Positions 2,771-20,416 of a DNA stretch of 64,000 bases are shown here, in pieces (positions within the stretch are counted from its first letter, which is position 1; each line of letters starts with the position of its first letter). This DNA is from Macrostomum lignano (lineage: Eukaryota), in contig NIVC01001860.1 in the NCBI GenBank assembly GCA_002269645.1, positions 1 through 64,000 on the forward strand. The letters run 5' to 3'. Under the pieces are notes generated by a model. The model was not told the DNA's origin. It worked only from the letters and a program-made list of their open reading frames with translations, and searched no databases. A program made the position numbers and the translations under genes.

Positions 2771-3135
2771 ACGGAGTCGGACGAGCGCGAGCTGCGCAAG
2801 GAGATCAGCTACGCCATCAGAAACATCCATGGCATCCGCACGGGCCTGTTCACGCCGGACATGGCCTTCGAGACGATCGTGAAGCAGCAGATCGCCAGGA
2901 TGAAGGAGCCAACGCTGAAGTGCGTGGACATGGTGGTGGAAGAGCTGATCAACGTGGTTCACCATTGCACAGAGAAAATGTCCAGCTACCCGAGGCTTCG
3001 CGAAGCCACTGAAAGCATCGTGACCAACAGGATCCGTGAACAAGAAGGCAAGACCAAGTCTCAGCTGATGCTGCTGGTGGACATCCAGCTCGCCTACATG
3101 AACACCAACCACGAGGACTTCATTGGATTTGCTAA
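2771..3135 (+). CDS. DNM: Dynamin exon (middle domain)
   Basis: [41 protein letters not shown]...[15 protein letters not shown]. Acceptor ctag at 2767-2770, donor gttagt at 3136 (phase 2). Confidence 0.95.
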
Positions 3136-3329
3136 GTTAGTGAAATACTAAACCAAAATCTCTACAACAGTTTTCTGGGAGAAGGGAAAACGAGCGACAT
3201 GGAATTACATTTCTCCAAAACGGGGCCGATTCGCTTCCAGACCAGTTTGGGAAGATAGACTGGGAAGAGAAGAAAGTCAGTTTTTCCTGTTAGAAAATTA
3301 TAAAACATTTTGTTCAGCTAGAGACAAAA

Positions 3330-3669
3330 AGTAGTAGGGCGAATTATGATACTGCCGCACTAGCACTGGCGAGATAGGCGGCAATGCAAATGTATAGGGA
3401 AAAATACACTGCGGAGATATGAGCCCTATCTCTGTGCATTGGGGACGGCTAAGCACTGCAGAGATATGAGCTCTATCTCTGTGCATTGGGGACGGCTAAG
3501 CACTGCAGAGATATGAGCTCTATCTCTGTGCATTGGGGACGGCTAAGCACTGCAGAGATATGAGCTCTATCTCTGTGCATTGGGGACGGCTAAGCACTGC
3601 AGAGATATGAGCTCTATCTCTGTGCATTGGGGACGGCTAAGCACTGCAGAGATATGAGCTCTATCTCTG
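3330..3669 (+). repeat. Left terminal inverted repeat (340 bp) containing a 47-bp hairpin tandem array that continues to 3789
   Basis: Reverse complement of 19836-20175. Eight units start at 3414, 3461 ... 3743. Confidence 0.95.
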
Positions 3670-4136
3670 TGCATTGGGGACGGCTAAGCACTGCAGAGAT
3701 ATGAGCTCTATCTCTGTGCATTGGGGACGGCTAAGCACTGCAGAGATATGAGCTCTATCTCTGTGCATTGGGGACGGCTAAGCACTGCGGAGATAGAGGC
3801 GATTCATGATACTGCCGCACTAGCGCTGGCGAGATAGGCGGCAAAAAGGATATAGGAAAAATACACTGCGGAGAGGATCCTATCTCTGTGCATTGGGAAC
3901 GGCTAAACATTGCAGAGATAAGAGGGGTGGCCAATCTCTGTGCTCTGTGTTAGGGTAAGGTTATAAAGTTTTACAACTGCACAGAGGACGGCTGGTGTTG
4001 CTTACCTGGATAAGGGGACGGGGGGATACACTAATTACAGCCAGTGGCCTCTATAACGGTAAAGTAATTATTACCTGAGCATGGCTGGATGTTCATATAC
4101 GATATGATAAGGAGAGGGCATGCATGTACAAATTAC

Positions 4137-4144
4137 TATATAAG
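4137..4144 (+). promoter_or_regulatory. TATA box (TATATAAG) upstream of Polinton ORF1
   Basis: Lies about 100 nt before ATG 4246, with a CCAAT near 3931. Confidence 0.55.
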
Positions 4145-4245
4145 CAGCCACGCAAGTACAAATAAACAAATAGACAAAAACAAATTGTATAAAAGGATTT
4201 TTAAAAACCTTACTACTTCTAAAAAACAACTCTTTCTCTTTCAAA

Positions 4246-5628
4246 ATGAAAACTTTTAAAAGTTGTCATAGAGACCTCTATGAGGTCTGTATAAGCTGCG
4301 AAGTGTGCCTGCTTGGAGGCGTGTCCCCAAGACACCACGAGAATGAGAACTGTCTGGTCTCATGCTGGTTGGCATGCGACCAGTGCGGCACCGTCGAAGC
4401 TCTGCAGGAGGGAAAAATTCCAGCATATCATCGAGGACACAAGATCGTCAGCGATGACAAGAAAAAGCAAGAAAGTAACCGCTGGAAAGTAATCCGCGCC
4501 ATCAAAAAGAGCAACGAGAGAGAAAAGAAGAGCCAGCAGAAAAAGGGAGCCAGCAGGAGTCTGCTATCAGCTCACTTGAGTCAAGTAATTGACTCTACAT
4601 TGAAGAGGATGAGGCCAAGCGGGTCTTCAGCAGCTGCAGAATTTGAAGTTGAGCTGTCTGCTGGAGTCGAGGCTGCTGGAGTCGAGGCTGCTGGAGTCGA
4701 GGCCGCTGGAGTCGAGGCTGCTGGAGTCGAGGCTGCTGGAGTCGAGGCTGCTGGAGTCGAGGCCGCTGGAGTCGAGGCTGCTGGAGTCGAGGCTGCTGGA
4801 GTCGAGGCTGCTGCTGTCATAAACTTCATAGAGGAAGATGTCCTGGATCAGTTCCTCAGGGAATTCAACGCTGGTCAGCAGCAGCAGCAGCAGCAACCTG
4901 TCTCTTCGGTTCCGGTGATTGCTGGAAAACAACTTCATCTAATTGAAGACGACCACGAAATGGAAATCCTAGAAGAGGAGGGCAGCGACAATGAGTCGCA
5001 TAATGCAATTGTGCCACCTGCAGCTCCAGCCGCCCCAGCTGCTCTGGCCGCCCCAGCTGCTCTGGCCGCCCCAGCTGCTCTGGCCGCCCCAGCTGCTCCA
5101 GCCGCCCCAGCTGCTCTGGCCGCCCCAGCTGCTCCAGCCGCCCCAGCTGCTCTGGCCGCCCCAGCTGCTCTGGCCGCCCCAGCTGCTCTGTCCGCCCCAG
5201 CTGCTCTGTCCGCCCCAGCTGCTCTGGCCGCCCCAGCTGCTCTGGCCGCCCCAGCTGCTCTGGCCGCCCCAGCTGCTCCAGCCGCCCCAGCTGCTCTGGC
5301 CGCCCCAGCTGCTCTGGCCGCCCCAGCTGCTCTGGCCGCCCCAGCTGCTCTGGCCGCCCCAGCTGCTCTGGCTGCCCCAGCTGCTCCAGCCGCCCCAGCT
5401 GCTCTGGCCGCCCCAGCTGCTCCAGCCGCCCCAGCTGCTCTGGCCGCCCCAGCTGCTCTGGCTGCCCCAGCTGCTCCAGCCGCCCCAGCTGCAGCCTCTA
5501 CAATTCCAGCTTCTCAATCCGAAACTCCACCCGTGCCAGCTGGAGTTGCCTTCTTTCTGCCTCCTGTCGGCGGGGCTGGGTACGAGGTAACGATTTTCGA
5601 AAATCGTATTAGAATTGTGCCGCTGTGA
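4246..5628 (+). CDS. Polinton ORF1: Cys/His-rich N-terminus, basic region, (AGVEA)10, acidic/polyQ segment and long Pro/Ala repeat; function unknown
   Basis: 460-aa ATG-initiated ORF just inside the left TIR with non-repetitive N- and C-termini (CISCEVC...HH...CLVSCWLACDQC). Its repeats are multiples of 3 and keep frame. Confidence 0.75.
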   Translation: MKTFKSCHRDLYEVCISCEVCLLGGVSPRHHENENCLVSCWLACDQCGTVEALQEGKIPAYHRGHKIVSDDKKKQESNRWKVIRAIKKSNEREKKSQQKKGASRSLLSAHLSQVIDSTLKRMRPSGSSAAAEFEVELSAGVEAAGVEAAGVEAAGVEAAGVEAAGVEAAGVEAAGVEAAGVEAAGVEAAAVINFIEEDVLDQFLREFNAGQQQQQQQPVSSVPVIAGKQLHLIEDDHEMEILEEEGSDNESHNAIVPPAAPAAPAALAAPAALAAPAALAAPAAPAAPAALAAPAAPAAPAALAAPAALAAPAALSAPAALSAPAALAAPAALAAPAALAAPAAPAAPAALAAPAALAAPAALAAPAALAAPAALAAPAAPAAPAALAAPAAPAAPAALAAPAALAAPAAPAAPAAASTIPASQSETPPVPAGVAFFLPPVGGAGYEVTIFENRIRIVPL

Positions 5629-6511
5629 CTAAGCAATTTTTGTACTTTTTTGCTTTCTGTGTGGAGTGAGAAATCTACCCATTTATTGCAATTATTGCTA
5701 AAACTTTATTTCAACTAGCTTTTTAAAGTTGAAAGTAGGTACATTAATTAATGATTTGATCATCTCATAACTCTGTATTCGCTTCTAGGAATCTTGCTTA
5801 TAAGTTTTCAGTTTTCATTTCCAAATTAGTTTTAAAAAAAGCTCGTAGCTCGTAGTGGCAACCAATATTTTTTTGGTATCCGAGGTAAAAAAAATTATTT
5901 GAAAAGTAGGTGAAACATTATACAGTTGAATTTAACAAATTAAAATCAACATAACATACTTTCAATAAATTGGTGATGGTTTCGTATGCTTGGTGCGATT
6001 GATTAGGTATAATTTTCTTTCTACTGCTTTGATGCGGTGTTTCCTCATTCTTTAATTATTGAACTTTTCAGCTATATTTCTGCTTCTAAACTCTCGTCTG
6101 TATTTGTAATTCATTGTTCCATGCATTGTTTATTGACTATGATTGCACCATGTGAATTCGATATTTTTTTAAAAAATATATATATAATGTCAGCATTTTT
6201 CCACTCGGTGATTGGTTTGTTAATTAACTATTGGCTTCATTTTGCATTTTTTACCGATTGAGTCTGCGTAGGAGGCAAATAGAAACGAACTTTTACGAAT
6301 AGGGATCAATAGAATATGCATGCAGAGAGCTAGCTTAAGGGAGAACCAAAAAAATATAACCAGCATCTACTAGCTTGTAAGTGTGGATATTGTACCAGTA
6401 TTGCAGCAATAAAGACTTACGAAAAAAGATTTCAAATATTCACTCCCAGTTGCTTATGACACTCAGTTGCAGCCAGTAAACACTGTCAGCTTTTAACTGC
6501 TTGCCTTTTCT

Positions 6512-6908
6512 ATGGTTGAGCACTCCTGGATGGAGCAGGAGAATGACCACTCATGGATGGAGAATGACCACTCATGGATGGAGAATGACCACTCATGGAT
6601 GGAGAATGACCACTCATGGATGGAGAATGGCCACTCGTGGATGGAGGATGACCACTCGTGGATCGAGTATGACCACCCTTGGGTGGACCATGACGTCAGC
6701 AGCGAGTCAGCAGCCAGCAGCGAGTCGGCAGCCAGCAGCGAGTCGGCAGCCAGCAGCGAGTCGGCAGCCAGCAGCGAGTCAGCAGCCAGCAGCGAGTCAG
6801 CAGCCAGCAGCGAGTCAGCAGCCAGCAGCGAGTCAGCAGCCAGCAGCGAGTCAGCAGCCAGCAGCGAGTCAGCAGCCAACAGCGAGTCGGTGACTGATGC
6901 ACACCAAG
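6512..6908 (+). CDS. Repeat-rich ORF/exon (ENDHSWM heptads, AASSES hexads), probable 5' exon of pPolB
   Basis: ATG at 6512, in-frame 21-bp and 18-bp arrays, strong donor caag|gtaagt at 6908/6909. Confidence 0.55.
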
Positions 6909-7331
6909 GTAAGTGCCTTTATTTATCCTTTTCAACTTACTTAAAAATTTTCTTATCAATGCGATGTATATTATGCAGTCTAAAATTTTAGTCCAAAGAA
7001 TGGGAGAAGGGGAGATAAAAGACTTTATACCGGTAGGGTTGTACATGTATGCTTGGGTACAGACGTTTAGTTTAGTATCTTTGATATTTGAAACTATAGG
7101 CAGCAAAAAACAAAAATATTATCCTAAAACCACAAACCAGGTTCAACAGTCAGCTTCAGCAGAGTTGCCCAAGCCTATGATCAATCACTGGAAATACTGA
7201 GGCTCAGATCGAGTCACCCAGACACGCTTCCGTCAGAATTTTTTGTCCAAGCTGGAGACAAAATTATTGAGGCAGTTCAGCAAAGAATTTCAAGACATCA
7301 TTACAAAGTTCAGCTAAAGGCGAATATTCGA

Positions 7332-10300
7332 ATGGTCCGAATAAGAGATGGGGAGATGCTTGCCGAAGAGGACAGATGGATAAGCTGTAAAATGCAGGCC
7401 CTAGACCTAGGTGGTGAAGCAGGCCGTTTAAACAACTGGTTGATTGAGCAGGAGCAGGAGTTGGAGAGGATCTGTAGTATGATTAATACGAACGGCAGTG
7501 GCTGGACAATTAAACAAATTAATTTTCTAGACATCAACCTTGCCAGGTACAATCCAATTCGATTTCGCCAGGGCAGAGCCGTTAGATTCAATCTTCCTGC
7601 CAGTTTGAAGAACAAAAAGGCTGTTATCAATCCACCGAGCACAGGCAAAGACTGTTTCCTGTACGCCTGTCTCGCTGCACTGCACAGCGCCGATCCGAAA
7701 GTTCAGAAATCGCCCAACAGAATATCCTCTTACGATGAATGGTTGCGTGAGCTGGACTTTGCAGAAATCTCCATGCCAGTGAGTGTCGCTGATATCGATC
7801 GCGTCGAGTCTAACAATCCAGGAATTTGCATTTCTGCGTTCTCTTGGCAGCAGGGCAGTGTGACTCTTCTCCGTCGCCGCAAGCATGAGTCAGATGACCG
7901 AAGACACCTCATGCTTTTGCTAGTTAAAGACAGCTACGGATCGGAGCACTGGTGTGCAATTACTAATTTTGACAGGTTAATGAACAGTCGTAATGGTCCC
8001 GCCATGAGGAAGTGGTGCACGAAATGTTTAACATCATTTTATAGCAACGAGAGGCTTCAAGAGCACAGGAACGAATGCAGCATTACTGCAGAAAATCCTG
8101 TCAAAGAAACGCTTCCAGTTCCAGGACAGAATGAAATAAAGTTCCGAAACTGTCAAAACACTGTCAGTCCACCATTCGTTGCCTATGCCGACCTGGAAGC
8201 CATTTTGCGAGCGAACACAGACCCTGCTAACCTGATCTCAAAGCATGAACCATGTGCAGCAGCTTTTCTTGCAGTGCCTCGTGAAGGCATGACAGGACCT
8301 CCGCTTAGGCCAGAAGGAGACATGTACAAGGTCTTTTGCAATGCGGACCCTGATGAGTGTATCCTTGGTTTTCTCAAATCTCTTGAAAGCCTGGCTCAGG
8401 ATATATTTCACTGGAACCAGAAGCATAGCCACCAGCCGGCTGACCGATCATCCGCGACCGTCATGGATGATTTCAATTCTGCTGAGGTATGTCACTACTG
8501 CAAGAAGAACTTTAAAAGTTCTACAGATAAACATTTTGACCACGATCATTTAAATGGACAGTACAAAGGTGCAGCATGTCAAGAATGCAACCTGCGAGCA
8601 CAGCTCCGACGCCGGTTTCTGCCCCTGGTTTTTCACAACTTAGGCGGCTACGACCTTCATCTTCTACTTTCCACTGCGCTTGGGAGCATGAAAAATTGGA
8701 AACTTAGTGTTGTTCCGCAATCATCCGAGCGATACTTGTCACTAAGGGCGGAATTCCCTGTTGCAAGTTACGTAAAGAACGGAAAAGTTGTGCCAATCAT
8801 GTTTACAATTCAGTTCATCGACTCGCTCTGCTTTTTGAAGGGAAGTTTGTCCAATTTGTTTGCTAATCTTCCCGAAGCTGAATGCAAGCTGACAATGCAA
8901 ATGCTTGAGTCAAGACCACATCTTTCAAGAGAGCTACTTCGAAAAAAAGGGATTTTCCCATATGATTACCTCACAGGATTTGAGATTCTCGAGCAGTCGG
9001 TTTTGCCGCCTAAAGATGCTTTTTTTAATCGACTTTCCGATCGGGGAATTTCCGACGACGACTACAATAGAGCAAGAGCGGCATGGGCGGCATTTCAATG
9101 CAAAAGTTTGAAGGATTATATGCTCGCCTATCTTGAAATGGATGTAAGGCAGCTGGCTGACATTTTCGAGACATTCCGACAGGCCAGTCTGAAAGAGGAC
9201 GGATTGGATCCGGTACACTACTTTACTACTCCTGGTTTGTCTTACGACTCAGCTCTAAAGTCGACTGGAGTGGTTCTAGAGCAGCTGACTGATGCTGACA
9301 TGTATCATCTGTTTGAGAAGGGAATACGAGGAGGCATGTCCTTCATTAATGTGCATTGCGTCAAAGGTAATAATCCTAGCTTGCCAGGTTATGATGATCA
9401 GCAAGAGAGTGTAAGCCTCATGCCGATCGATATGAACAACTTGTATGGCTTTGCCCTGTCGCTTCCGCTTCCATGCAGGGAATTCAGGTGGGTACCGGAA
9501 CAGGAAATCCAGTTCTGGGACTCCAATCGGTTTCTGTCACTCAATCCAGAAGCCGAGATCGCCTACCTTGTTCAACTCGATCTAGAATACCCAGCTGAGA
9601 TTCACGATTCGACTCAGGAGTTACCGTTTGCACCTGAAAAATCAAAACCACAGCCAGATCAATTCTCGCCGTACATGGCCGAACTATGGAAAGAGATTGC
9701 TGAACAGCGAACTGGCAATGCTGAAGCTAAGTTTCAAGCAACGGAGAAGCTTCTACTCACCTGTACCGACAAGGATTCTTACGTAGTTCACAGCACCGTT
9801 TTAAGATTTTACCTGCAACACGGAATGCGGATCAAGTGCGTCAAAAAAATGATTTCGTTCAAGCAGGAAAATATTTTCGCGCCGTACATTGCCAGCAACA
9901 ATGAAAAAAGAGCTTTGGCAACTTCCGAGTTTGCTAAGGATTTTTACAAATTGAAAAACAATTCTCTCTTTGGAAAAACTATGGAGAACGTTCGAAAAAG
10001 ATGCGATGTTCGAATTTGCACTAACCAGACTCAAGCAGAAACTTGCGCCTCTCGACCAAACTGTGCCGCATTCTCGATTATCAATGAGTCGTTGAGCATT
10101 TTTCAGCTCAAAAAAGATAAAGTCACGCTTGACAAGGCCATTTTCGTTGGCCAGGCAGTTCTCGATCTCTCTAAGATGGCCATGTACAGCCTACTATATG
10201 ACAGGCTCCGACCGCTGTTCTGTCATTCAGACGGTTCCAGAGACATGATGCTTTGCGGAGGTGATACTGACTCATTTTTTCTAGCTTTCAAGAATCATGA

Positions 10301-10790
10301 TTTAACATCGGAGGTAATCCCGAAGCTTAGAGAGGAAAAAATACTTGACACATCCAACTATTCTCGAGACCATCCGCATTTCTCTGAAGAGTTAAAAGGA
10401 AAGCTGGGCTGCGTTAAAGATGAATCTGCTGGTGGAATTTACCAGGAGTGGATTCTTTTGCGTCCAAAACTTTATTCGTTTCTCCCTGCCGAGAATTCGA
10501 GTGCAAAGATCAAGAAAACTGCCAAAGGCGTGAAGCAGTCAGTAGTAAGACAGCAAATTTCGCATGCGAACTATGTCGACGCGTTCGAGTCCAAGCAAGA
10601 GCAGATGGTTGCCATGACAGCGATTGTTTCCAAGAAACACGAAATCTTCACGTCGGTCATGGAGAAAAGAAGCCTATCGGTGTGGGAGGATAAGCGAGTG
10701 TGGCTTAGCAGTAATCGAAGCCTGCCCTACGGACACTATGCGCTGACGCCCGCATCCCACGATCAGCTGAAGCGCATCCGACTGGTCTAG
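7332..10790 (+). CDS. polB: Protein-primed family B DNA polymerase (pPolB); reading frame open from 7128
   Basis: Exo motifs FHNLGGYD, FIDSL, KGIFPYDY, YLEMDV. Pol motifs GIRGG, DMNNLYG, KLKNNSLFGK, GGDTDS, RPKLY, AKGV. Endonuclease VII/HNH-like DHDHLNGQYKGAACQECNL. Confidence 0.97.
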   Translation: MVRIRDGEMLAEEDRWISCKMQALDLGGEAGRLNNWLIEQEQELERICSMINTNGSGWTIKQINFLDINLARYNPIRFRQGRAVRFNLPASLKNKKAVINPPSTGKDCFLYACLAALHSADPKVQKSPNRISSYDEWLRELDFAEISMPVSVADIDRVESNNPGICISAFSWQQGSVTLLRRRKHESDDRRHLMLLLVKDSYGSEHWCAITNFDRLMNSRNGPAMRKWCTKCLTSFYSNERLQEHRNECSITAENPVKETLPVPGQNEIKFRNCQNTVSPPFVAYADLEAILRANTDPANLISKHEPCAAAFLAVPREGMTGPPLRPEGDMYKVFCNADPDECILGFLKSLESLAQDIFHWNQKHSHQPADRSSATVMDDFNSAEVCHYCKKNFKSSTDKHFDHDHLNGQYKGAACQECNLRAQLRRRFLPLVFHNLGGYDLHLLLSTALGSMKNWKLSVVPQSSERYLSLRAEFPVASYVKNGKVVPIMFTIQFIDSLCFLKGSLSNLFANLPEAECKLTMQMLESRPHLSRELLRKKGIFPYDYLTGFEILEQSVLPPKDAFFNRLSDRGISDDDYNRARAAWAAFQCKSLKDYMLAYLEMDVRQLADIFETFRQASLKEDGLDPVHYFTTPGLSYDSALKSTGVVLEQLTDADMYHLFEKGIRGGMSFINVHCVKGNNPSLPGYDDQQESVSLMPIDMNNLYGFALSLPLPCREFRWVPEQEIQFWDSNRFLSLNPEAEIAYLVQLDLEYPAEIHDSTQELPFAPEKSKPQPDQFSPYMAELWKEIAEQRTGNAEAKFQATEKLLLTCTDKDSYVVHSTVLRFYLQHGMRIKCVKKMISFKQENIFAPYIASNNEKRALATSEFAKDFYKLKNNSLFGKTMENVRKRCDVRICTNQTQAETCASRPNCAAFSIINESLSIFQLKKDKVTLDKAIFVGQAVLDLSKMAMYSLLYDRLRPLFCHSDGSRDMMLCGGDTDSFFLAFKNHDLTSEVIPKLREEKILDTSNYSRDHPHFSEELKGKLGCVKDESAGGIYQEWILLRPKLYSFLPAENSSAKIKKTAKGVKQSVVRQQISHANYVDAFESKQEQMVAMTAIVSKKHEIFTSVMEKRSLSVWEDKRVWLSSNRSLPYGHYALTPASHDQLKRIRLV

Positions 10791-11372
10791 TGCGGGTGTT
10801 TAACAGACTGTTTAGTACTTTTTCTTGCTTTTAGAGTTGTTTAAATTGCCAAATTCTGTTTTAAATGTAGTGACTTGCATGTAGTAACTTTTACAAATTT
10901 GTATGCTTGGCTAATTGCGCTAGATTTAGCTGTCAATTTGTTTTTGCGGCGTGAAATATTGATATCAATTTAAGTTTTACTTTTTATAAAGCTGTGTGGC
11001 AAGTGCGCTCATACAATATTAATTCATTTTTGTTTGCTTTGTGTACTACTTGTTTAAAATGTGTTTTTGGTTTTTATCTGACACAAATTGTTCCTGTAAA
11101 TTCAATCAGCGTTTTAATCATATTTTCTCTATCACTTTTCTATTTCTCTTCTCTCGGTGCACATCGTTTGTTATAACGATGGTAGTATTGTTTACTTTCG
11201 GATTTGATATGCGTTTTGCGATACTTTTGGTGATGGGCTAAATACGTTTTTGAAGTGTTCCATAGCTGTCTGCCTGGGAAAATGAATGTAAAGAATACCA
11301 AGTTTATCCTTTTATTCACTTTTCACTAATCATTGAAATATTTGCGGCAAATTGCTTGACTTGACTTTATTT

Positions 11373-11945
11373 TTATTCAATGGAAAGAACTACATTGAGT
11401 AGACGCATGCTATCGGTATGCAACTGATTCAAGGACCGAGCTCCACTGAGAACAAAAGAGCCGCTGTGAAAAAGCAGACATTTACAAAAGTTTAAATTGA
11501 AAATTAAAGCAGAAAAGGATTCTGGTTCATATTCGGCGTTTGGGATAATTGATTTTAACATTAATAAGGAAAGTGCGGAATGAACTGGGAGCTGTCCATG
11601 AGCAGTAATAGTTTTAATTCGAACACAAATTGTTTGATGAGGCAGCAGTTGAGCCGGCACTCTCCGATGCAGCATAGCCACGAAGCGACGGGCAGCCCTT
11701 TTGGCGTCTGCGTGGGTCTTGGCACCGCAGATGCTCAGTTGCCCAGTAGGGTAGAGTAGGAGAGTCACTCTGGGAATCCGCATCCGCTTGATGAGCACCC
11801 GGGGCCAGACGGGCCGGTAGATCACATGAGCCATGCTGAGAGCCAGTTCCCGTAGAGGCAGCTGAGCGCCCCTGCCACCATCCAGTCTCAGATCTACTCC
11901 GCCAACCAGATTGGTCACTCTTAGGGCTGTAGCTGGTGGGCTCAT
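11373..11945 (-). CDS. TBP: TATA-binding protein (TBP)-like protein, about 190 aa from ATG 11945
   Basis: Two TBP core repeats recognised by eye: TNLVGGVDL...LLLYPTGQLSICGAK...AARRF and AEYEPESFSALIF...CLLFHSGSFVLSGAR. Human TBP has QNIVSTVNL, ALIFSSGKMVCTGAK, AARKY, YEPELFPGLIY and LLIFVSGKVVLTGAK. Confidence 0.88.
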   Translation of the reverse strand: MSPPATALRVTNLVGGVDLRLDGGRGAQLPLRELALSMAHVIYRPVWPRVLIKRMRIPRVTLLLYPTGQLSICGAKTHADAKRAARRFVAMLHRRVPAQLLPHQTICVRIKTITAHGQLPVHSALSLLMLKSIIPNAEYEPESFSALIFNLNFCKCLLFHSGSFVLSGARSLNQLHTDSMRLLNVVLSIE

Positions 11946-12465
11946 TTCGATCGTCAACTTCTTCACCAAATCTGCTTCTGCCAACTTTACTGCTCGTGTG
12001 CCACGGACACTGCTCGCTTCTTAAGTTGATGCAGAACTTTGGCTTAAGCCAACTGTAGTGCAGCAACGAATTTCTCACTGCACAGCCAGTATCTGAATCT
12101 TCAGTCGAGGGTGCTCCCAAATCTTCTAGGTTATAAACCTGTCTTCCAAGCAGCTCAGTCAGAAAAATCGACTTCCTTTCCCCATTTGACCAGATCGGAC
12201 CACTGGCAATGCTCAGAATGTCTTCCGCCAGTTCCATGTACGGACGGGTTCCATCATTCCACTTAAACTGGTGCAGACTCTTAGATAGCTGTCTGTAGTA
12301 AACTCGCATGTCAGGTGAGACTCTCTCCCATGGATACGGAGGTGCGTACACATGGTGAGCAATGTGGTAGCTCCCCGCTCTGATTTGAACAACTGCCAAC
12401 TCCTTCACAACAAATTTTTTGCTTGTGCTGTTGCACGGGAATCCTTGGAAGTCAATGTAGTTCAT
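11614..12465 (-). CDS. DEDD/DnaQ-like exonuclease-family Polinton protein; its C-terminal extension overlaps the TBP-like gene
   Basis: N-terminal YIDFQGF...FVVKELA, PPYPW, NLEDLG and CA..N pattern resembles small Polinton DEDD-fold proteins. Confidence 0.65.
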   Translation of the reverse strand: MNYIDFQGFPCNSTSKKFVVKELAVVQIRAGSYHIAHHVYAPPYPWERVSPDMRVYYRQLSKSLHQFKWNDGTRPYMELAEDILSIASGPIWSNGERKSIFLTELLGRQVYNLEDLGAPSTEDSDTGCAVRNSLLHYSWLKPKFCINLRSEQCPWHTSSKVGRSRFGEEVDDRNEPTSYSPKSDQSGWRSRSETGWWQGRSAASTGTGSQHGSCDLPARLAPGAHQADADSQSDSPTLPYWATEHLRCQDPRRRQKGCPSLRGYAASESAGSTAASSNNLCSN

Positions 12466-12506
12466 GATGCAGCTTTCCTTCGAAAATTTCGGAGTCAGTC
12501 CACCTT

Positions 12507-12514
12507 CTTATATA
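12507..12514 (-). promoter_or_regulatory. TATA box (TATATAAG, minus strand) upstream of the exonuclease/TBP-like unit
   Basis: cttatata on the plus strand, 42 nt before ATG 12465, inside a 100-nt intergenic gap. Confidence 0.55.
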
Positions 12515-12565
12515 CTTTTCTGGCAGGCAATTTCAGCCAGGCTGTGTTGCTCCCGTACCCCTTGA

Positions 12566-13186
12566 CTAGACTCTCCTGTTCTTTCTCCAGTTCACCCCTC
12601 TGCTGGTTGCCATTTTCTTCTTAACTGATTTACCAACAGCGGAAAGCGGAACATTAAGCTTTTTCTGCTGCAGAAAATCGATGAACTCGTTCCACCCAAC
12701 TGGTTCACGCTCACATGGCGAATCCCTCACTGTGTGCTGAATCAAGTCCAGTATGTTTGAGGAAGGGATTGACGTGCCTGCGATTTCCACCTCCCCGTTT
12801 TCACAAACTCGAATCAGCTCTGGATTGGTGGACAGGATCGTCCACAGACTGCGAGCCCTGGTTTTGAATTTCTGTGGCACCGACTTGCTGATCTTCTCTT
12901 CCCAGGTGCTTATCTGGGGTGTCTCTGTTTTCATCAACTTGGCTTCAGTATTGCGTGCTCCTTCTTTTCCAGCGTGCTTGCGCTTGGCCAGCAAACTTTG
13001 CATTGCACTTTGGTACATGGCGGTTTTCACATCTTCTGGACAATCCTCGGCATACAAGATGTCATCGCATTTCTTCTGAGCCTGCTTCAAGTCAGCTTCA
13101 GTGGTAGTCTCATTTGGCTTCAAATTCTGCATCAACATCTCATACTCTGCTTTAGGAATCAGAACCATTTCTGAAAATTTGTTCAT
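12566..13186 (-). CDS. Conserved-type Polinton hypothetical protein (206 aa)
   Basis: MVLIP start and GEV.I.G..I..SNI.DL...P.GW..F pattern resemble uncharacterised Polinton/adintovirus proteins. It sits in the late gene cluster. Confidence 0.7.
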   Translation of the reverse strand: MNKFSEMVLIPKAEYEMLMQNLKPNETTTEADLKQAQKKCDDILYAEDCPEDVKTAMYQSAMQSLLAKRKHAGKEGARNTEAKLMKTETPQISTWEEKISKSVPQKFKTRARSLWTILSTNPELIRVCENGEVEIAGTSIPSSNILDLIQHTVRDSPCEREPVGWNEFIDFLQQKKLNVPLSAVGKSVKKKMATSRGVNWRKNRRV

Positions 13187-13490
13187 TTTGCTTCTTCTTC
13201 TTTACCAGCTTAAGCAGAATCGGGAGTATTTTGATGAAGCCAGCCTTCAACAAGTCTGTCTTTCTTCTTTTGTGAGTAATTTTTCGAATTATCTCTTTTG
13301 ACTTTGCAAGAACAGCTTTTTCATCGAGCGAAAACGATAGATTGTTTTGTAAGAGATTATGGCAGGCCTCGACAAGAAAATAACGCACTTCTTTTGGACA
13401 ATTTTTTATCAACAGCCGCTTGAAGCGCACGGTATATTTAGGTGACGCAAGAACCGCAAAAAGACTTGCATATGAATCAAGCACTTCCAT
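13152..13490 (-). CDS. Small basic helical Polinton hypothetical protein (about 112 aa)
   Basis: ATG 13490. The L..L...RLLI...E...NLL.NN...IRKI pattern is typical of the small ORF that follows the ATPase in Polintons. Confidence 0.65.
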   Translation of the reverse strand: MEVLDSYASLFAVLASPKYTVRFKRLLIKNCPKEVRYFLVEACHNLLQNNLSFSLDEKAVLAKSKEIIRKITHKRRKTDLLKAGFIKILPILLKLVKKKKQNEQIFRNGSDS

Positions 13491-13531
13491 TGCGATGAAA
13501 ACAATAGCTGATAAAAACAAGCTTCACTTTC

Positions 13532-14211
13532 TTAAGCAAATACAAGATGGGGTCGCTGGTTGGGCAGAATTCTGGCCCGCACTCGCAGCTCATCGGGAGT
13601 TGATGGGTGAAAGTCTAGGAACAGGTAGGCTCCCCTGCCCTGCGCGGTCACGTGCTTGAACACTGACAGCAGAAAGCCGGGCTTCTCTGTAAAGCACTGC
13701 CTGCCCAGTGCTGCAATCTGCAGCTGGTCTCGGGGTTTTTCAAGATAGCTAAGTACATTACATTCAAGCTCATTGTTCGCGACTCTTTTCCCTTGAAAAA
13801 TATATTCTGAGTCAGCATCACCAAAAAGCACGGCAAGTGATGTGCGATTCCTGTGAAAAAATTTCGCATTGAAGCAGAGTTTGAAGTTTCCTCTATTAAG
13901 TCATCGAAAACAACCAGGTCATTGGGCCTAAGTGCTGCCTCGATGTTGGTGGGAAATCCCTGGCGCAGCTGCACACCTAGGCTGTTCAGTTCTGCATGGC
14001 CTGCCTGTGAGATCCCATAGTACCACAGAACTCTGCCAGGCTTCACATCAAACATGACGTCTCTGTACTGGATCAGGTGTTCGACAAAGGTTGTTTTTCC
14101 TGCATTGGTGGGCCCGCAGACAATCATGCAGCTTCCCTGCCTGAGGCGGATATCGTAGCAAACTTGCTTTTCTCCCATGTTTAATGCATAAATATTAGAA
14201 ATCACGGACAT
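13532..14211 (-). CDS. FtsK/A32-like DNA packaging ATPase, split by a 1-nt frameshift at about 13732-13740
   Basis: Walker A GPTNAGKT, Walker B VVFDD, LTQNIF and LAILKNP in one frame. RDQLQIAALGRQ...YLFLDFHPSTPDELRVR continues in the adjacent frame. Confidence 0.9.
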
Positions 14212-14714
14212 CTTTTTCTTAAGTTGGCTTCAAACCTCTGTAAGATTCTATCATTCAAATGATTTTTCTCATTAGCATGCAAATGCTTCAAAATCCCCTC
14301 AAATGACCGATTGAACAGAAACTTTTGATAAGCAAAATAGATGCAAAACATTCCGCATTTATTAGAGTTAGCACATTGAACTCTGTTTATATTGCTTCGG
14401 AGCCAAAAGCCAGTTGTTTTAATCTCTCGAAACAAATTATAAACCAAAGATAAAATTTCAGGTTCCCAGCCGAGGGAGTTGAACAACTCAATGCGATTTC
14501 CTTGCCCAACATAGCACACCACCCAGTGACCAAATGAGCCATTGTGCTGAAGTAGGACAAAAACAAACTTGTTTTCAAAGGAAATTGATGATCTAAATTT
14601 TCTTTTTACATTCAAGGGCAGAGAATTTTTATAGCGCAAATGTAAAGTAACTATGAGAAATTTTTGGTAAGGCAAAAATTTTCTGGCGAGATTAAGTAGT
14701 TGAATTGCATCCAT
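14202..14714 (-). CDS. Adenain-like cysteine maturation protease
   Basis: GHW (His), FNSLG (acid position is Asn), VQ...CG (oxyanion Gln and catalytic Cys). Confidence 0.85.
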   Translation of the reverse strand: MDAIQLLNLARKFLPYQKFLIVTLHLRYKNSLPLNVKRKFRSSISFENKFVFVLLQHNGSFGHWVVCYVGQGNRIELFNSLGWEPEILSLVYNLFREIKTTGFWLRSNINRVQCANSNKCGMFCIYFAYQKFLFNRSFEGILKHLHANEKNHLNDRILQRFEANLRKRCP

Positions 14715-14719
14715 GTCAA

Positions 14720-16003
14720 TTAAGAGGAATAGTCCAGCAAAAGCTCTCGGTGCTTGGTGACCTCAATCAGCGAGTCATACAGGCACATAGCAATCAGGGA
14801 CACCGCTTCATTCAGAGCCTGTTGGAAGCGAATCTCCAGCCGCAGGTTGCCCTCCTTCTGTCCGTACCACAGAGCCGCTCCCTCGGGTGTGAGATCGAAT
14901 GCAAACACCGTGGTGTTGTTGGAGAAGAGCTGGTAGGGGATCCACGGGACCGAGTTTGTGTGGCTTGCAGATTGACAGCTTTTCAGGTAGTGCAAGTATT
15001 CTCTTACGAAGGAATTGTTTTCAGGTGTGAAGGCGCCGTGGCACACGGTTTCCCCACCTTTCTTTAGAGCCAATCGGCTAAGGTTGAAGCTCTGGAACTG
15101 TAACGGGCTCGCGTGATGATGACCGTTGAATGCTCGGTGGCTCACGAAGGCCAGCATGATGAACTTCGGCAATTTTCCATGAGTGAATCCTTCAATGTTT
15201 TTTGACTGAATACCCTGGGGTAGGATGAAGTTCTGCATTTCAGTTCGCTCGATGGGATACAGTGCATTTTGGTTTGTCAGCCCCTGCTCATGGGCCAGGC
15301 TGATGTGGGGCATCACTTTGACTCGGCGAAGATGCAGAATGCTGTGAGAGATTTCCATTCGGTATGCCGCGTTGTTTGCATTCGGGGTTCTGATGGCAAA
15401 GGCCCCATCGCTGGGGACCAGTTTGATGTGCAGGTGCAGATTGCTTAGCAGAAACACTGGGCACTGGAAAACATCGCTGAAGAGCGGCCCCGCATACTCC
15501 ATCCATTGGGATTCCCTGTGGCTCTCCGTGTGCTCTTCAGCTGCCGAGTTCGGCTCCAGGAAGCCAGCAGGGTAAAGTTTTAGTTGCTGGGCATCGGATG
15601 AGCTCATTAGTGCTTTGAAGTACGCATGGTAGGGATAGAGCTGGTCTCCACCAGACACCACTCGCTGGTTAATGCTCACAATTACATCTGAGAAGGCTGT
15701 AGACAGAACAAAATTTTCTGGGTGCACGTCACTGTCTCTGCGCTCGGTGATGATGCCATCTCCATCTCGAACATCCTCCCTCAGCAAACCCCCATCCAGT
15801 CTCACAAGGCGGCAGCGAATATAAAGAAAAGAATTAAGCAGATCTGTATATTCATCGGCAGATTGGTGGCAGTCAAATTCAATGGGAGAGTTTGCAACAA
15901 TGGAATTAACTGGGTGAATATCAACATAAGTAGCTTTTTCAATGCAGGTTTGTAGAACGGGCGTCTTAAATAAATCAAGTCTGGGATTGAATCCGTAAGC
16001 CAT
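14720..16003 (-). CDS. Major capsid protein (double jelly-roll, Polinton PY/hexon-like)
   Basis: 427 aa, beta-rich. LDLF..P..Q, SPIEF, FSDV.V.IN, YPYHAY, P.FIMLAFV, FAFDLTP and G.LRLEI.F patterns. Located next to the protease. Confidence 0.88.
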   Translation of the reverse strand: MAYGFNPRLDLFKTPVLQTCIEKATYVDIHPVNSIVANSPIEFDCHQSADEYTDLLNSFLYIRCRLVRLDGGLLREDVRDGDGIITERRDSDVHPENFVLSTAFSDVIVSINQRVVSGGDQLYPYHAYFKALMSSSDAQQLKLYPAGFLEPNSAAEEHTESHRESQWMEYAGPLFSDVFQCPVFLLSNLHLHIKLVPSDGAFAIRTPNANNAAYRMEISHSILHLRRVKVMPHISLAHEQGLTNQNALYPIERTEMQNFILPQGIQSKNIEGFTHGKLPKFIMLAFVSHRAFNGHHHASPLQFQSFNLSRLALKKGGETVCHGAFTPENNSFVREYLHYLKSCQSASHTNSVPWIPYQLFSNNTTVFAFDLTPEGAALWYGQKEGNLRLEIRFQQALNEAVSLIAMCLYDSLIEVTKHRELLLDYSS

Positions 16004-16005
16004 GT

Positions 16006-16383
16006 CTATGACAGAGAGTCGAGCACGCGTTTCACAGTTTTCTTGCTGACTTTTTGCTTTCGCTTTCCTCCGCCTGCTCTATTCTTCTTTGCTTTCGTCT
16101 TCCTATTCTTAAGCTTTTTCCCACTAGCCTTGCTCGACCTCTTACTGCGATTTCCACCAGTTGCCTTTCGGGTGCCCTTCTTTTTCTTCAATCGTTTCGG
16201 ACTTGCTTCAGTATTTCTTTTGCGCCTGACGTTGCTAAGCGTCGAGGCTGATGATGATGATATAGCCGCTGGCGGAGGCTGGTATGTCATGATCCCTGGG
16301 AAGCTCCCACAGCCATAGAGTGCAGGCTTTTCGTGTCCTGTCCTCACCCCCGAATATTGCTGGATTAGCTGCTGGTAGTTCAT
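16006..16383 (-). CDS. Lys/Arg-rich putative genome-condensing core protein (125 aa)
   Basis: ATG 16383 overlaps the minor capsid stop (ATGA). The C-terminal half is very basic. Contains LYGCG. Confidence 0.7.
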   Translation of the reverse strand: MNYQQLIQQYSGVRTGHEKPALYGCGSFPGIMTYQPPPAAISSSSASTLSNVRRKRNTEASPKRLKKKKGTRKATGGNRSKRSSKASGKKLKNRKTKAKKNRAGGGKRKQKVSKKTVKRVLDSLS

Positions 16384-17198
16384 TGAATGCGTTTCTCCTG
16401 AATTTGAACTGTAAGCAGAACAGGGCTGTGAGTCTGTGCAATCAGTGGGCAACCATAGATGTCCCGCAGCTGAACTCGAATGCTGTGAAGAAGACTGATT
16501 CGTTGAATCGGGAAGAATATTGTTTTCTTAAATATTTTTGTTTGATAGTTGCCCCATTCAATGCCAGCTTTCATTCCAACTGTTCTCAACAAGGAGCTCC
16601 AGTTGCAATTAGTTGACTCAACGATACTGCAGTGCACATTGATTAAGCTGGTGCGCGGGCAGCCAATGCAATGCTCGGATACGCGGCTCCCTGGCTGGAT
16701 TTTCACAGCCTGGTTTCCAAATCCCAGCCAATGCAGAATTTTACTAGATGGAAGAAACAGCTCTGCTCTCGCAGTGTTGTTGTGCACCACAGTTCGTGAG
16801 TTGCGGATTTCGAACTTCATACCAAATTCCCTGTTGCCACTACGCCCCATCAGGCCGGACTCATCAGCCTCCATCTCAGACTCCCTGTCACTCATTGCAT
16901 CAAAGAACAGCGAATCAGAGTTGGCCAGCAGCTCATTCAGGCGCTCCACCAGCTCCTCCACTCTAGCAAAGCGTCCGGGTTGAAGAACCAGGGCCTCATG
17001 CTCTCTTCCATCTGAGACAGTGAAGCAGTAAGGCTCGTCAACATTGAACCATGCAGCAGGCAGATGGATTTCAGCCAGACCTGCCTCATAGTCCACATTT
17101 CGATCCAAGTAAATAGGTGAAGGCAGGTAAAAATTAAAGTCACTAGGAGTACCTTCAGCATGCTCACTGTTAATCAAAATAGTTCGCATTATAATCAT
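16380..17198 (-). CDS. Minor capsid protein (penton, single jelly-roll)
   Basis: N-terminal PSDFNFYLPSPIYL...YEAGLAEIHLP..WFNV pattern is typical of Polinton pentons. Confidence 0.8.
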   Translation of the reverse strand: MIIMRTILINSEHAEGTPSDFNFYLPSPIYLDRNVDYEAGLAEIHLPAAWFNVDEPYCFTVSDGREHEALVLQPGRFARVEELVERLNELLANSDSLFFDAMSDRESEMEADESGLMGRSGNREFGMKFEIRNSRTVVHNNTARAELFLPSSKILHWLGFGNQAVKIQPGSRVSEHCIGCPRTSLINVHCSIVESTNCNWSSLLRTVGMKAGIEWGNYQTKIFKKTIFFPIQRISLLHSIRVQLRDIYGCPLIAQTHSPVLLTVQIQEKRIQ

Positions 17199-17226
17199 AA
17201 ACTACATGATGAGGGCTGTGCCAAAG

Positions 17227-18297
17227 CTAAACCTTTCTTAAGTCTTTTTCATCCACCCAGCCAGTCGAGTCGTAGCCCGCCCATTTCACCAGATAGCGAA
17301 TTTTTCCCTTCCGCTTCTCCGTTTTCAGGATCTTCTCAATCACATACAGCCGCTGTGAGTCCGGGACAGCCTGCAGCTCGTGCTCATGGAAGAGTCCTCG
17401 AATCTCTTGCCCCCGCATGTCTTTAATCTTGTACATGTAGGGATAATGTTTTGGGGCTCTGCTCACCACGGTGTACACTTCCTCACTCCAGCTCGCTTTG
17501 TATCCCTTTTTGAATATCCGTGGAGCATTGGAAATTCTCACTGACTGGTTTTCAGCGAACTTAGGCTTCTTTAATTTTTCTAGAGTCTCGACTGCTTTTC
17601 CATCGTACAGGTTCATCCACACTTCAGATTCATTCTCTTTGCAGACACTAGTGGGTGCCATTTTGATGCTTCTGTGGTAGGTATTGTTGTAGGATTTTAC
17701 CAGCTTAGGCAGCACATCAAGCCAGTGCAGTGTGCTCTTGTAGGTGAAGTAGCGCCACATTCTACTTTTCAGAGTTCGATTCCATCGCTCAATGACAGCT
17801 GCCTTCTGCTCGCTGTTAGTTGGGAAAGCCAGAATCCCTCTGTCAATGCAGTATTGACGGAAAGTGGAGTTGATAAATTCCTTCCCCTGATCTGTGCGAA
17901 CTGTGCGTGGCTGGCGCTTTGAACTTCTCAGTATGCTCTCGAATGCTGACTTCACTTCTGCAGCAGATTTATTTTTCAGTGCCTTGGCCCAAGCACATTT
18001 TGAGAGCACGTCAATGCATGTGAGAATATATTTGTAGCCTTTATTATGCTTTGCGAATGGAATCATTTCCACTAAGTCAAGTTCCCACTGATCATCGATT
18101 GCGCGCACTATGATTGGGGCCCTTGGATATCGCCTCCTAGCTGGCTTGTGCAGAGTGTGCACTGGCTGCTCGCTGAGCCACTGCTCAATGCTCTTTGCAG
18201 ATATTCGATCACCTCTTTGCCTCACTTCATGCAGCAACTTTGAGGCACAAGAAAAACTAGCCGGTTGCTCAGGTTTCAAATAAATTTTCTCCATCAT
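17227..18297 (-). CDS. Retroviral-like DDE integrase with C-terminal chromodomain
   Basis: WELDLVEM (D), RTDQGKEF (D), VIERWNRTLK (E). C-terminal IEKIL...YLVKWAGY...WV chromodomain. Confidence 0.95.
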   Translation of the reverse strand: MMEKIYLKPEQPASFSCASKLLHEVRQRGDRISAKSIEQWLSEQPVHTLHKPARRRYPRAPIIVRAIDDQWELDLVEMIPFAKHNKGYKYILTCIDVLSKCAWAKALKNKSAAEVKSAFESILRSSKRQPRTVRTDQGKEFINSTFRQYCIDRGILAFPTNSEQKAAVIERWNRTLKSRMWRYFTYKSTLHWLDVLPKLVKSYNNTYHRSIKMAPTSVCKENESEVWMNLYDGKAVETLEKLKKPKFAENQSVRISNAPRIFKKGYKASWSEEVYTVVSRAPKHYPYMYKIKDMRGQEIRGLFHEHELQAVPDSQRLYVIEKILKTEKRKGKIRYLVKWAGYDSTGWVDEKDLRKV

Positions 18298-18617
18298 GGG
18301 TTTATCAAGATACGTGCCTATCCACCTGCTCTAGCTGTACAGTATTTTTTCTTAAGTAGAAATTTATATTCCAATTAAATGATAGAGAAACGAGTGGCAA
18401 ATTAATTTATTACTGTCAGATTGAAACCTCTAACATCGTAACAGTCGGTGTATTTTCCGAAAGCAAACAATCCATAAAAACGAACACTAAAACACTCGCA
18501 CACCAGCATTTCAGAAATAGCAGAGATAAAAAACAGCATAGTGCCGTCAGGCTGGATAATCATGTGCAAGCTAAAAGTAATTTAGTTAGTCCAATGCATT
18601 CAAAGCATTCTAGCTGT

Positions 18618-19394
18618 TCAGTTATCAAAGCGAACATTGGGCTGCAGCCTCATCGCGTCCTGCCGACGAAGTTGAAATGGCAGCTTTCGCTTCCTGCTGC
18701 TGCTGCTCACCGTCGAAGCCGCTGCATGCGCCCTGAACTGATACCACACCGGATCTTCCTCAAGGTTGGTGTCCCGCTGCGGAAGCAGTCCAGCATCAGA
18801 ATCAACCGAAGGTATCGGTGTGGATGTGATTGGCTCAGTCACAATGCGCGGCCTTGTGGGCGAGCTAACGTCCTCGTCATCAGCATGATCTCCGCCCTCA
18901 TCAGTCTCCATTATGGGCTTCGTGTCCTGGTCAGCCTCCAACTTGAGCTTCTTGTCCTCTTCCTCCTCTTCCTCATCAGACTCCAGCTCGTACTGCATTG
19001 TGTTCCTCAAGGGAGCCACCAGCTGACCGTCGATCCAGGAGGCGATTTTCCAGAGCTTCTGCCACAGCGGCGGAGTCAGTGGTACGGCGTTTCGTCTCAA
19101 AAACTCCTCGCAGCAATCTTCCGGCAGCCGTTTGAGCCAAATGATGCCGCCTTTGACTTCCACAAACTTATCGAAGCCGAGTTTCACGACCTTGGGCTCG
19201 TTGTTGCGTGCAGAAATCACAAGTGAGCGTTTCACCTCCTTCAATTTCTTCCATTGGTGAACATTCAGGTTGAATCCTGGGACGCCTGGCTTCAGACTTG
19301 CCGTGCTGCCGTGTCGGTAAAATTTGCGAATAGCGATAAATTTTTGTCCTTCAAACTCCTGGACTTGTGCCTTATAGCCTTCACAGATGTCCAT
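18618..19394 (-). CDS. PC4/Sub1-like ssDNA-binding protein with a probable second degenerate PC4 repeat and an acidic tail
   Basis: AQVQEFEGQKFIAIRKFY...LKPGVPGFNLNVHQWKKL resembles PC4 VSVRDFKGKVLIDIREYW...KPGRKGISLNPEQWSQL. Confidence 0.8.
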   Translation of the reverse strand: MDICEGYKAQVQEFEGQKFIAIRKFYRHGSTASLKPGVPGFNLNVHQWKKLKEVKRSLVISARNNEPKVVKLGFDKFVEVKGGIIWLKRLPEDCCEEFLRRNAVPLTPPLWQKLWKIASWIDGQLVAPLRNTMQYELESDEEEEEEDKKLKLEADQDTKPIMETDEGGDHADDEDVSSPTRPRIVTEPITSTPIPSVDSDAGLLPQRDTNLEEDPVWYQFRAHAAASTVSSSSRKRKLPFQLRRQDAMRLQPNVRFDN

Positions 19395-19498
19395 TTTCCT
19401 TTCGCAATTGAAAACTCACAAAAGTTAAAAGCTGAGGAAAATTTCGGATGAAATTTTGGATTTGAAAAATTGAGAATTCTTTCTTGTCAATTTCGGGG

Positions 19499-19558
19499 CT
19501 TATATACCCTCGACCGAACCACCCCAAACCACCCATCCCACTCCGGGCTCTGTGATTG
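19499..19558 (-). promoter_or_regulatory. Pol II promoter of the PC4-like gene: CCAAT box and TATATAAG
   Basis: gattggc at about 19553-19560 and cttatata at 19499-19506, 105 nt before ATG 19394. Confidence 0.6.
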
Positions 19559-19601
19559 GCTCTTTCGCAAACATTATTTCCAATTACATAGATTAACATC
19601 T

Positions 19602-19820
19602 TATCTCTGCAGTGTTAACCACCCCCAATGCAAAGAGATAGGCCGCCTCTCCTCCTATCTCTGCAGTGTTAACCACCCCCAATGCAAAGAGATAGGCCGC
19701 CTCTCCTCCTATCTCTGCAGTGTTAACCACCCCCAATGCAAAGAGATAGGCCGCCTCTCCTCCTATCTCTGCAGTGTTAACCATCTCCAGTGTAAAGAAA
19801 TAGGCCGCCTCTTCTCCTAT
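19602..19820. repeat. 54-bp subterminal tandem repeat (about 4 copies) related to the TIR 47-bp unit
   Basis: tatctctgcagtgttaaccacccccaatgcaaagagataggccgcctctcctcc at 19602, 19656 and 19710. Confidence 0.9.
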
Positions 19821-19835
19821 CACTCCTGTGTTAAG

Positions 19836-20175
19836 CAGAGATAGAGCTCATATCTCTGCAGTGCTTAGCCGTCCCCAATGCACAGAGATAGAGCTCATAT
19901 CTCTGCAGTGCTTAGCCGTCCCCAATGCACAGAGATAGAGCTCATATCTCTGCAGTGCTTAGCCGTCCCCAATGCACAGAGATAGAGCTCATATCTCTGC
20001 AGTGCTTAGCCGTCCCCAATGCACAGAGATAGAGCTCATATCTCTGCAGTGCTTAGCCGTCCCCAATGCACAGAGATAGGGCTCATATCTCCGCAGTGTA
20101 TTTTTCCCTATACATTTGCATTGCCGCCTATCTCGCCAGTGCTAGTGCGGCAGTATCATAATTCGCCCTACTACT
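19836..20175 (-). repeat. Right terminal inverted repeat (340 bp)
   Basis: Five full and one partial 47-bp unit plus the terminal unique part. Ends attcgccctactact. Confidence 0.95.
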
Positions 20176-20416
20176 ACAAAAGTTTCTCCCCTATTTGCCA
20201 GATGTGGTAAATAAGTTTCTATTCTTTCAGTTCAGTAGCAATGAAGAATTTGTACATAGGAACGGGGGGACAGTGGGGCCATGGCCGGCCAGTAATGGTA
20301 TCTGGCCCCTCCACATTTTAAATGCAAAATGTTGACTTTTTGCTTATTTTTTACTCTTATTTCTGGTTTTTGCTGCTTTTCATGAATGCATTTTGCTGCA
20401 GGACGACAAATCATAG

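Follow-up and report, generated by a model that had tools for sequence, protein, structure and literature searches.

A TBP-like protein and a candidate late promoter motif in a Polinton family of the flatworm Macrostomum lignano

Described relatives and the Polinton of the dynamin intron

In the parts of Starrett et al. 2021 consulted here (PMC8502044), the animal adintoviruses and Polintons are elements of about 17 kb with terminal inverted repeats (TIRs), a 6-bp target-site duplication (TSD) and genes for a protein-primed family B DNA polymerase (pPolB) of the PF03175 type, an rve integrase, an adenain-like protease, an ATPase and a double-jelly-roll major capsid protein (MCP). The same set is found in an element that lies within an intron of a dynamin gene of Macrostomum lignano, in a stretch of 64,000 nucleotides (contig NIVC01001860.1, positions 1 to 64,000; hereafter the window, to which all coordinates refer). 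By the features tested, namely TIRs, 6-bp TSD, pPolB, rve integrase, double-jelly-roll MCP and adenain, this element is a Polinton/adintovirus, and its family shows the exchange of modules between lineages that the same source describes for the adintoviruses. The family differs from the adintoviruses of that account in adding genes for a TATA-box-binding protein (TBP) and a PC4-domain protein, together with a shared upstream motif. We consider it likely, at a probability of roughly 0.6, that the window element is a young copy of an expanding Polinton family whose own TBP reads this motif, YWTAAGAA, and so switches on the integrase and virion genes through the host's RNA polymerase II (Pol II).

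[quoted passage not shown] ORF24 of KSHV, the Kaposi's sarcoma-associated herpesvirus) acts at TATTWAA late promoters; the use of host Pol II is shown for the herpesvirus vTBP and inferred for the window family. As far as these two sources were covered, ORF24 is a large protein that operates in a six-protein complex, binds the C-terminal domain of Pol II directly and lacks the acidic residues that contact TFIIB (PMC12529657), whereas the window TBP is a bare saddle of 190 aa that keeps these acidic residues and has no Pol II-binding N-terminal domain. By analogy, the window system appears to work like the herpesvirus vTBP system without being a member of it. TBP homologues of large DNA viruses in BFVD (e.g. 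that of Heterosigma akashiwo virus) likewise show a viral TBP fold, and the structural match of the window protein to them is weaker than that to cellular TBPs. Most large DNA viruses with TBP homologues encode their own RNA polymerase; there is no RNA polymerase gene among the 14 open reading frames (ORFs) of the window element, which therefore needs host Pol II.

As to precedent, the consulted parts of Starrett et al. 2021 (PMC8502044) mention 'TBP' solely to label a gene, in the legend to a figure on MELD viruses and related elements; the same legend label is present in the corresponding part of bioRxiv 10.1101/697771, and the words 'promoter', 'PC4', 'Macrostomum' and 'flatworm' are absent from the Starrett main text as far as it was covered. 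PMC12801592 contains no mention of 'Maverick' or 'polinton'. The literature covered describes neither a Polinton TBP reading a viral promoter nor Polintons of Macrostomum; subscription journals, Repbase and the Starrett supplements, which may name such a gene, were outside this scope.

A divergent TBP and the YWTAAGAA motif

The initial annotation of this DNA had omitted both the TBP-fold gene and the PC4 gene of the element. The features on which the following analysis centers are:

11373..11945, minus strand: TBP-like protein, 190 aa, two lobes (PF00352, E 8e-25; predicted fold)
11614..12465, minus strand: 283-codon ORF, presumed DEDD-like gene, overlapping the TBP gene; first 160 aa conserved
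12018..12025, minus strand: YWTAAGAA before TBP, 80 nt before the TBP start
12505..12514, minus strand: canonical TATA that overlaps a YWTAAGAA site, upstream of the DEDD-like gene (young lineage)
4137..4144, plus strand: canonical TATA box (TATATAAG), 109 nt before ORF1

The PF00352 match covers two repeats in the ORF at 11373-11945, and a two-repeat saddle is supported by a structural model (pLDDT 94.9) whose top matches are archaeal and eukaryotic TBPs (TM about 0.82). With these proteins (PF00352; PDB 1mp9, 1cdw, 1ytb) it has in common the two-lobed saddle, N12, F144, F159 and the acidic stirrup; it differs from them in its identity of about 25%, the lack of an N-terminal extension, the replacement of six conserved residues and its failure to group with the TBP or TRF of the host. 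A tree built from 163 sequences places the TBPs of two element families together (SH-aLRT 84) and separates them from host TBP and TRF (98). A recent capture of the host TBP is thus unsupported, on a tree with long branches. The contig set of the genome that was searched for relatives, empty sites and paralogues (G000) contains 152 TBP matches, 25 of them identical. All 10 of the older copies that were sampled, including the second family, carry the gene, which in each case adjoins the DEDD-like gene; as these ten were chosen via TBP matches, they show gene context and not frequency. The dN/dS values of TBP against eight older copies (0.17-0.39; 0.07-0.19 for MCP) indicate purifying selection on the TBP fold.

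Comparison with 43 other TBP-like proteins showed that N12, V14, T61, L63, E140, E142, F144 and F159 are kept, and that P48, Y65, S71, T112, T114 and S145 stand in place of F, F, V, N, V and P respectively. Of the intercalating phenylalanines, F144 and F159 are retained, one is Y65 and one aligns with P48, so that only two of the four are phenylalanine. Y65, S71, T112 and K155 are common to all 14 element-type sequences, as are the stirrup glutamates E140 and E142. The changes on the DNA face (F to Y65, V to S71, N to T112, V to T114 and the loss of the proline after F144) recur in both families, which are only 38% identical in TBP. By these residues the protein is best classed as a divergent TBP-like protein rather than a canonical TBP. 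Across subfamilies its N-terminal lobe is nearly invariant and the outer helices of the C-terminal lobe are strongly variable (11373-11650). For the conserved 160-aa protein of the adjoining gene (11980-12465), Atlas pointed weakly (0.87) to Maelstrom, a domain of the piRNA pathway.

The string CTTAAGAA occurs six times on the coding strand between 10.8 and 19.6 kb and not at all on the other strand. After inspection the pattern was widened to YWTAAGAA, which gives eight sites on the coding strand and none opposite, located 44-149 nt upstream of the genes for the integrase (INT), putative penton, core-like protein, MCP, ATPase, ORF13490, DEDD-like protein and TBP. Only four occurrences were found in 47 kb of host DNA, both strands counted, and the maximum in 500 Markov simulations each was 4 (order 2) and 6 (order 3), as against the 8 observed. 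Five of the copies lie within coding sequence, where codon shuffling yields a mean of 1.12 (P=0.002). The genes concerned, and the remaining genes of the element, are as follows:

4246..5628, plus strand: ORF1 (460 aa), with a Cys/His-rich N-terminus plus acidic and Ala/Pro repeats; identity to other subfamilies 27-39%
6512..6991, plus strand: ORF2; repeat-rich; donor-like GTAAGT at 6909
7128..10790, plus strand: pPolB (PF03175, E 2e-12; catalytic motifs); open from 7128, first ATG at 7332
12566..13186, minus strand: conserved ORF (ORF13186); early end near 12.59 kb in the window copy
13152..13490, minus strand: basic ORF, 112 aa (ORF13490); motif at 13529-13536
13530..14211, minus strand: P-loop ATPase; Walker A, weak AAA matches; frame broken near 13.73 kb; motif at 14216-14223
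14202..14714, minus strand: adenain-like cysteine protease (PRO; PF00770, E 7e-5, above cut-off; catalytic motifs); no motif upstream
14720..16003, minus strand: double-jelly-roll MCP (model pLDDT 84.6); motif at 16106-16113
16006..16383, minus strand: basic core-like protein; motif at 16525-16532
16380..17198, minus strand: putative minor capsid protein (penton), assigned by position and conservation; motif at 17235-17242
17227..18297, minus strand: rve integrase with chromodomain (INT; PF00665, PF00385, DDE motifs); motif at 18349-18356
18618..19394, minus strand: PC4-domain protein with acidic tail (PF02229, E 5.5e-8); canonical TATA at 19499-19506

When the window copy and up to 15 others were compared, 76 of the 88 windows that lie upstream of the eight genes contained the motif, and none of the 23 for ORF1 and PC4 did; of the latter, 13 contain TATAWAAR. 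Of the twelve misses, eight concern the ATPase and TBP genes of the distant family, two the MCP gene of a diverged subfamily (with the variant CCTAAGAA) and two are single copies. The position of the motif is kept across lineages that are 35-85% identical, and before INT it is retained although the flanking non-coding DNA has diverged. In the distant family it precedes INT, MCP and DEDD, and is also found at penton, core and one further position; TBP is there preceded by a canonical TATA in three of four copies. The G of the motif is invariant, and most copies begin with C.

Two promoter classes and a changed DNA face of TBP are most simply explained by the viral TBP reading the second class. 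The following programme would then apply. Host TBP would first read the canonical TATA before PC4, ORF1 and the DEDD-TBP pair, the last of these (in the young lineage) providing a first round of TBP synthesis; the viral TBP would then bind YWTAAGAA before INT, penton, core, MCP, ATPase, ORF13490, DEDD and TBP, where the motif before its own gene would give positive feedback, and would recruit host TFIIB through the retained acidic stirrup, with PC4 acting as a single-stranded-DNA-binding protein or co-activator. To such a minimal private programme in full, in which a 190-aa TBP with a re-tuned DNA face reads the motif, brings in the TFIIB and Pol II of the host and drives its own amplification, we give an even chance. 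According to the consulted part of PMC12529657, a preference for T as the first base of TATA comes from the proline that follows the third phenylalanine. That proline is lost in the viral TBP, and most motif copies start with C and not T. Judging from TBP structures, the change of V to S at position 71 could make room for the invariant G. KSHV ORF24 is without the acidic residues needed for TFIIB (PMC12529657, as covered), and the viral TBP, which keeps them, therefore probably uses host TFIIB. The core coding region of host TFIIB itself is split by an intron.

Several observations weigh against this interpretation. Both the motif pattern and the gene set were defined after the window copy had been viewed, and the copies compared represent only about three independent lineages. 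The distant family is without the motif at ATPase and TBP, the MCP gene of the diverged subfamily is preceded by a variant, and there is no motif before PRO (0 of 8) or ORF13186 (0 of 10), both of which were left out of the 88. In the diverged subfamily no canonical TATA precedes DEDD or TBP, and the TBP tree has long branches. A TBP-less Polinton family that could serve as a control was not found in G000, where the Pox_A32 search was empty and the integrase search returned the two known families and deleted derivatives. Furthermore, P48 occupies an intercalating site that is F in 38 of the 43 other TBPs and could weaken DNA bending, and cellular TBP has been crystallised on TATA variants with a single G(-26) or T(-30) (PDB 1qn5, 1qna).

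The last two points also bear on the main rival, that YWTAAGAA is a weak TATA variant read by host TBP/TFIID, with the viral TBP supplementing limiting host TBP, titrating inhibitors of the Mot1, NC2 or TAF1 type, or acting as a decoy. The PDB titles indicate that cellular TBP binds single G or T variants at these positions, P48 replaces an intercalating phenylalanine, the DEDD site is at once a canonical TATA and a motif in the young lineage, and the C-terminal lobe has outer helices that differ from one subfamily to another, as expected of a host-facing surface. We nevertheless hold this rival to be unlikely, since the invariant G and the use of canonical TATA elsewhere in the element point to two classes, and since both families, with only 38% identity in TBP, carry the DNA-face substitutions in fixed form. 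A different possibility takes the motif as a late initiator or operator that is read by ORF1, the DEDD-like protein or PC4 instead of TBP. Its core is TAAG, which in baculoviruses is the late initiator, its distance to the ATG ranges from 44 to 149 nt, and ORF1 combines an N-terminus rich in Cys and His with an acidic region. With no RNA polymerase gene among the 14 ORFs, an ORF1 only 27-39% conserved between subfamilies in which the motif is unchanged, and an A/T-rich 8-bp shape that would fit a TBP saddle, we judge this explanation improbable.

The insertion, its relatives and the surrounding sequence

The Polinton spans 3330-20175 (16,846 bp), and its boundaries agree with those that had been proposed earlier:

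2771..3135, plus strand: host dynamin exon before the intron (PF01031)
3324..3329, plus strand: left TSD (ACAAAA), in single copy at empty sites
3330..3669, plus strand: left TIR; AGTAGT end, 47-nt tandem repeats running on to about 3795
19836..20175, minus strand: right TIR, complementary to the left arm
20176..20181, plus strand: right TSD (ACAAAA), outside the right TIR
21556..21604, plus strand: host dynamin exon after the intron, joining the preceding exon in frame

The initial annotation described a recent, near-intact polintovirus with matching 340-bp TIRs and an exact 6-bp TSD. The two arms (3330-3669 and 19836-20175) are indeed 340 nt long and 100% complementary, and ACAAAA lies just outside both ends; together with the double-jelly-roll capsid gene and the empty sites, these features support that description, with the qualification that two frames are broken. 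The 47-nt tandem repeat makes up most of each TIR arm; the repeats fill the TIRs (3360-3930), with a second copy of the terminal segment at 3798-3844. Of eight other copies with both ends, four have an exact TSD, one has one mismatch, one is offset by 3 nt and two are unmatched. The intron begins with GT at 3136 and ends with AG at 21555, measuring 18,420 nt, or 1,568 nt without the element, and the flanking exons join in frame as had been claimed; the exons for the PH, GED and proline-rich regions are all present downstream. The claimed orientation also holds, with ORF1 and pPolB (and ORF2) sense to dynamin and the other 11 ORFs antisense.

Empty sites lie in two contigs of G000 (C2293 and C881), which match the insertion region at 97-98% identity; their introns measure 1,505 and 1,565 nt, the flanks are adjacent and the 6-mer occurs once (one mismatch). 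Both junctions therefore match real host DNA and the insertion is real. The notion that a collapsed repeat was wrongly placed into the intron finds some footing in a sister copy (C1021) that combines the left flank of the C100 copy with the right flank of the C530 copy, so that interiors can be mosaics; yet a chimera would not yield flanks adjacent in two empty contigs and a TSD that matches at both ends, and misassembly of the insertion is extremely improbable. C1021 itself is probably a chimera, by misassembly or by recombination between copies.

The genome of M. lignano comprises three subgenomes about 2% apart, according to the consulted part of PMC10733133. This description is matched by the triplets of contigs found for this dynamin, for three dynamin paralogue groups, and for host TBP and host TRF. 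The element is present in one of the three homologous dynamin contigs, in all of which the exons flanking the intron are identical, and the insertion postdates the separation of the three contigs from one another. Presence in one of three can be a difference between subgenomes and need not mean polymorphism between worms. The dynamin gene had been called essential; with this locus in three contigs and three further paralogue groups, each again in three, it is redundant and buffered. On the dynamin strand AATAAA occurs six times within the element and already six times in the native intron; an effect of the insertion on dynamin is possible. Within its one host dynamin copy out of three the window element is probably a passenger, and the insertion as such is ordinary and of little importance.

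The roughly 14 ORFs reported earlier are present, and the full virion module reported with them lacks an open frame for the packaging ATPase in this copy. The frame is broken near 13.73 kb, and that of ORF13186 near 12.59 kb; the other 12 of 14 frames are of the usual length. Programmed frameshifting at the ATPase break was ruled out, as the frames are continuous in older subfamilies. Among 15 scorable young copies the ATPase break appears as in the window in nine and differs in six, while the second break is shared by three and differs in ten; among the ten copies scored at both there is no conflicting combination. Such nested, common breaks fit lesions inherited in the latest burst. Assembled copies often differ by single-base indels (228 in 215 kb, 126 of them in runs of three or more), and contigs from four of four short-read runs, which follow the majority of more than 100 copies, are without either break; the breaks may therefore be assembly errors. 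On balance we lean towards taking them as real, in which case the window copy on its own would probably need the help of other copies for the packaging ATPase.

These data bear on the earlier view, under which the copy is an activatable provirus able to act by itself, interferes with an essential dynamin gene and is polymorphic in the population. The identical TIRs, exact TSD, 12 frames of usual length, the six AATAAA within the element and the unbroken short-read contigs from an indel-rich family are what that view would call for. The nested ATPase break in nine of 15 young copies, the two uninterrupted copies of this dynamin with three paralogue groups besides, and the six AATAAA of the native intron make it quite unlikely; as assembled, the copy has no open packaging-ATPase frame and is not singled out from its sister copies.

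The window element is one of dozens of near-identical young copies. Its MCP DNA is matched at 96-100% in 40 of 40 scored places (150 candidates), and its terminal 81 nt at 100% in 40 of 40 (127 candidates). For 20 copies with TBP at least 99% identical, picked for room on their contigs, nine have 0-1 substitutions from the window over 7-13 kb of non-repetitive core. Flanks are distinct for seventeen termini in 14 copies, with the exception of C1021. G000 also contains older subfamilies, as well as a distant second family (MCP about 40%, INT 56%). Module exchange is evident in C754, C759, C986 and C1113, where identity to the window is 92-98% for MCP, penton and ATPase, 45-52% for pPolB, about 30% for ORF1 and 60-75% for PC4, and the TIRs differ; C3000 and C317 are internally deleted derivatives in which only PC4, integrase, the start of penton and ORF1 are left. 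Metagenome scans for relatives with DNA context turned up none.

Some gene assignments of the element deserve comment. The MCP has no Pfam, PHROG or PDB match by sequence, with a weak Capsid_N match in only 2 of 28 relatives; by Foldseek its model matches PBCV-1 (Vp54) and mavirus MCP at E 8e-15 to 2e-14, and also Sputnik. The ATPase is presumed, by position, to be the packaging ATPase; a Pox_A32 profile search of G000 gave no match, and the frames in older copies have 215-226 codons. The penton label is similarly assumed from position, without a Pfam or PHROG match. The homology of pPolB begins about 68 codons upstream of its first ATG (6512-7332), and the donor-like GTAAGT suggests that ORF2 is possibly the first exon of a spliced pPolB. 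Contigs of four runs, which cannot exclude splicing or trans-splicing, show no GT-AG joint in 6862-19570. A Pfam scan of 7128-7700 for the OTU domain of the adintovirus PolB N-terminus gave no match, and the true N-terminus may sit in an upstream exon.

The rest of the window contains a rhodopsin-family GPCR frame (29588-30385), a gene for an amino-acid permease (37950-40453) whose frame changes near 38.8 kb and an uninterrupted 1,271-codon gag-pol frame of an LTR retrotransposon with protease, reverse transcriptase (RT), RNase H and integrase (42753-46568). An element at 48442-50888 has 199-nt inverted arms (99%) and internal 180-nt repeats; its short frame has what we take to be a cysteine-protease-like motif, with no Pfam match. 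Several minus-strand frames at 53187-59378 resemble transposase remnants, the two scanned having no Pfam match.

Implications for Polinton biology

A conserved TBP and a matching motif before the virion genes imply a regulated late phase in Polintons of this lineage, and a TBP that has been re-specified in nature has a bearing on the way in which TBP recognises DNA. RNAi and transgenesis are available in the host, a model flatworm, and the family offers dozens of recent copies that are nearly identical. If the proposed reading is true, no eukaryotic DNA virus would be known to have a smaller early-to-late switch; the system would be convergent with the herpesvirus vTBP and would provide an orthogonal TBP-promoter pair in a transgenic model animal.

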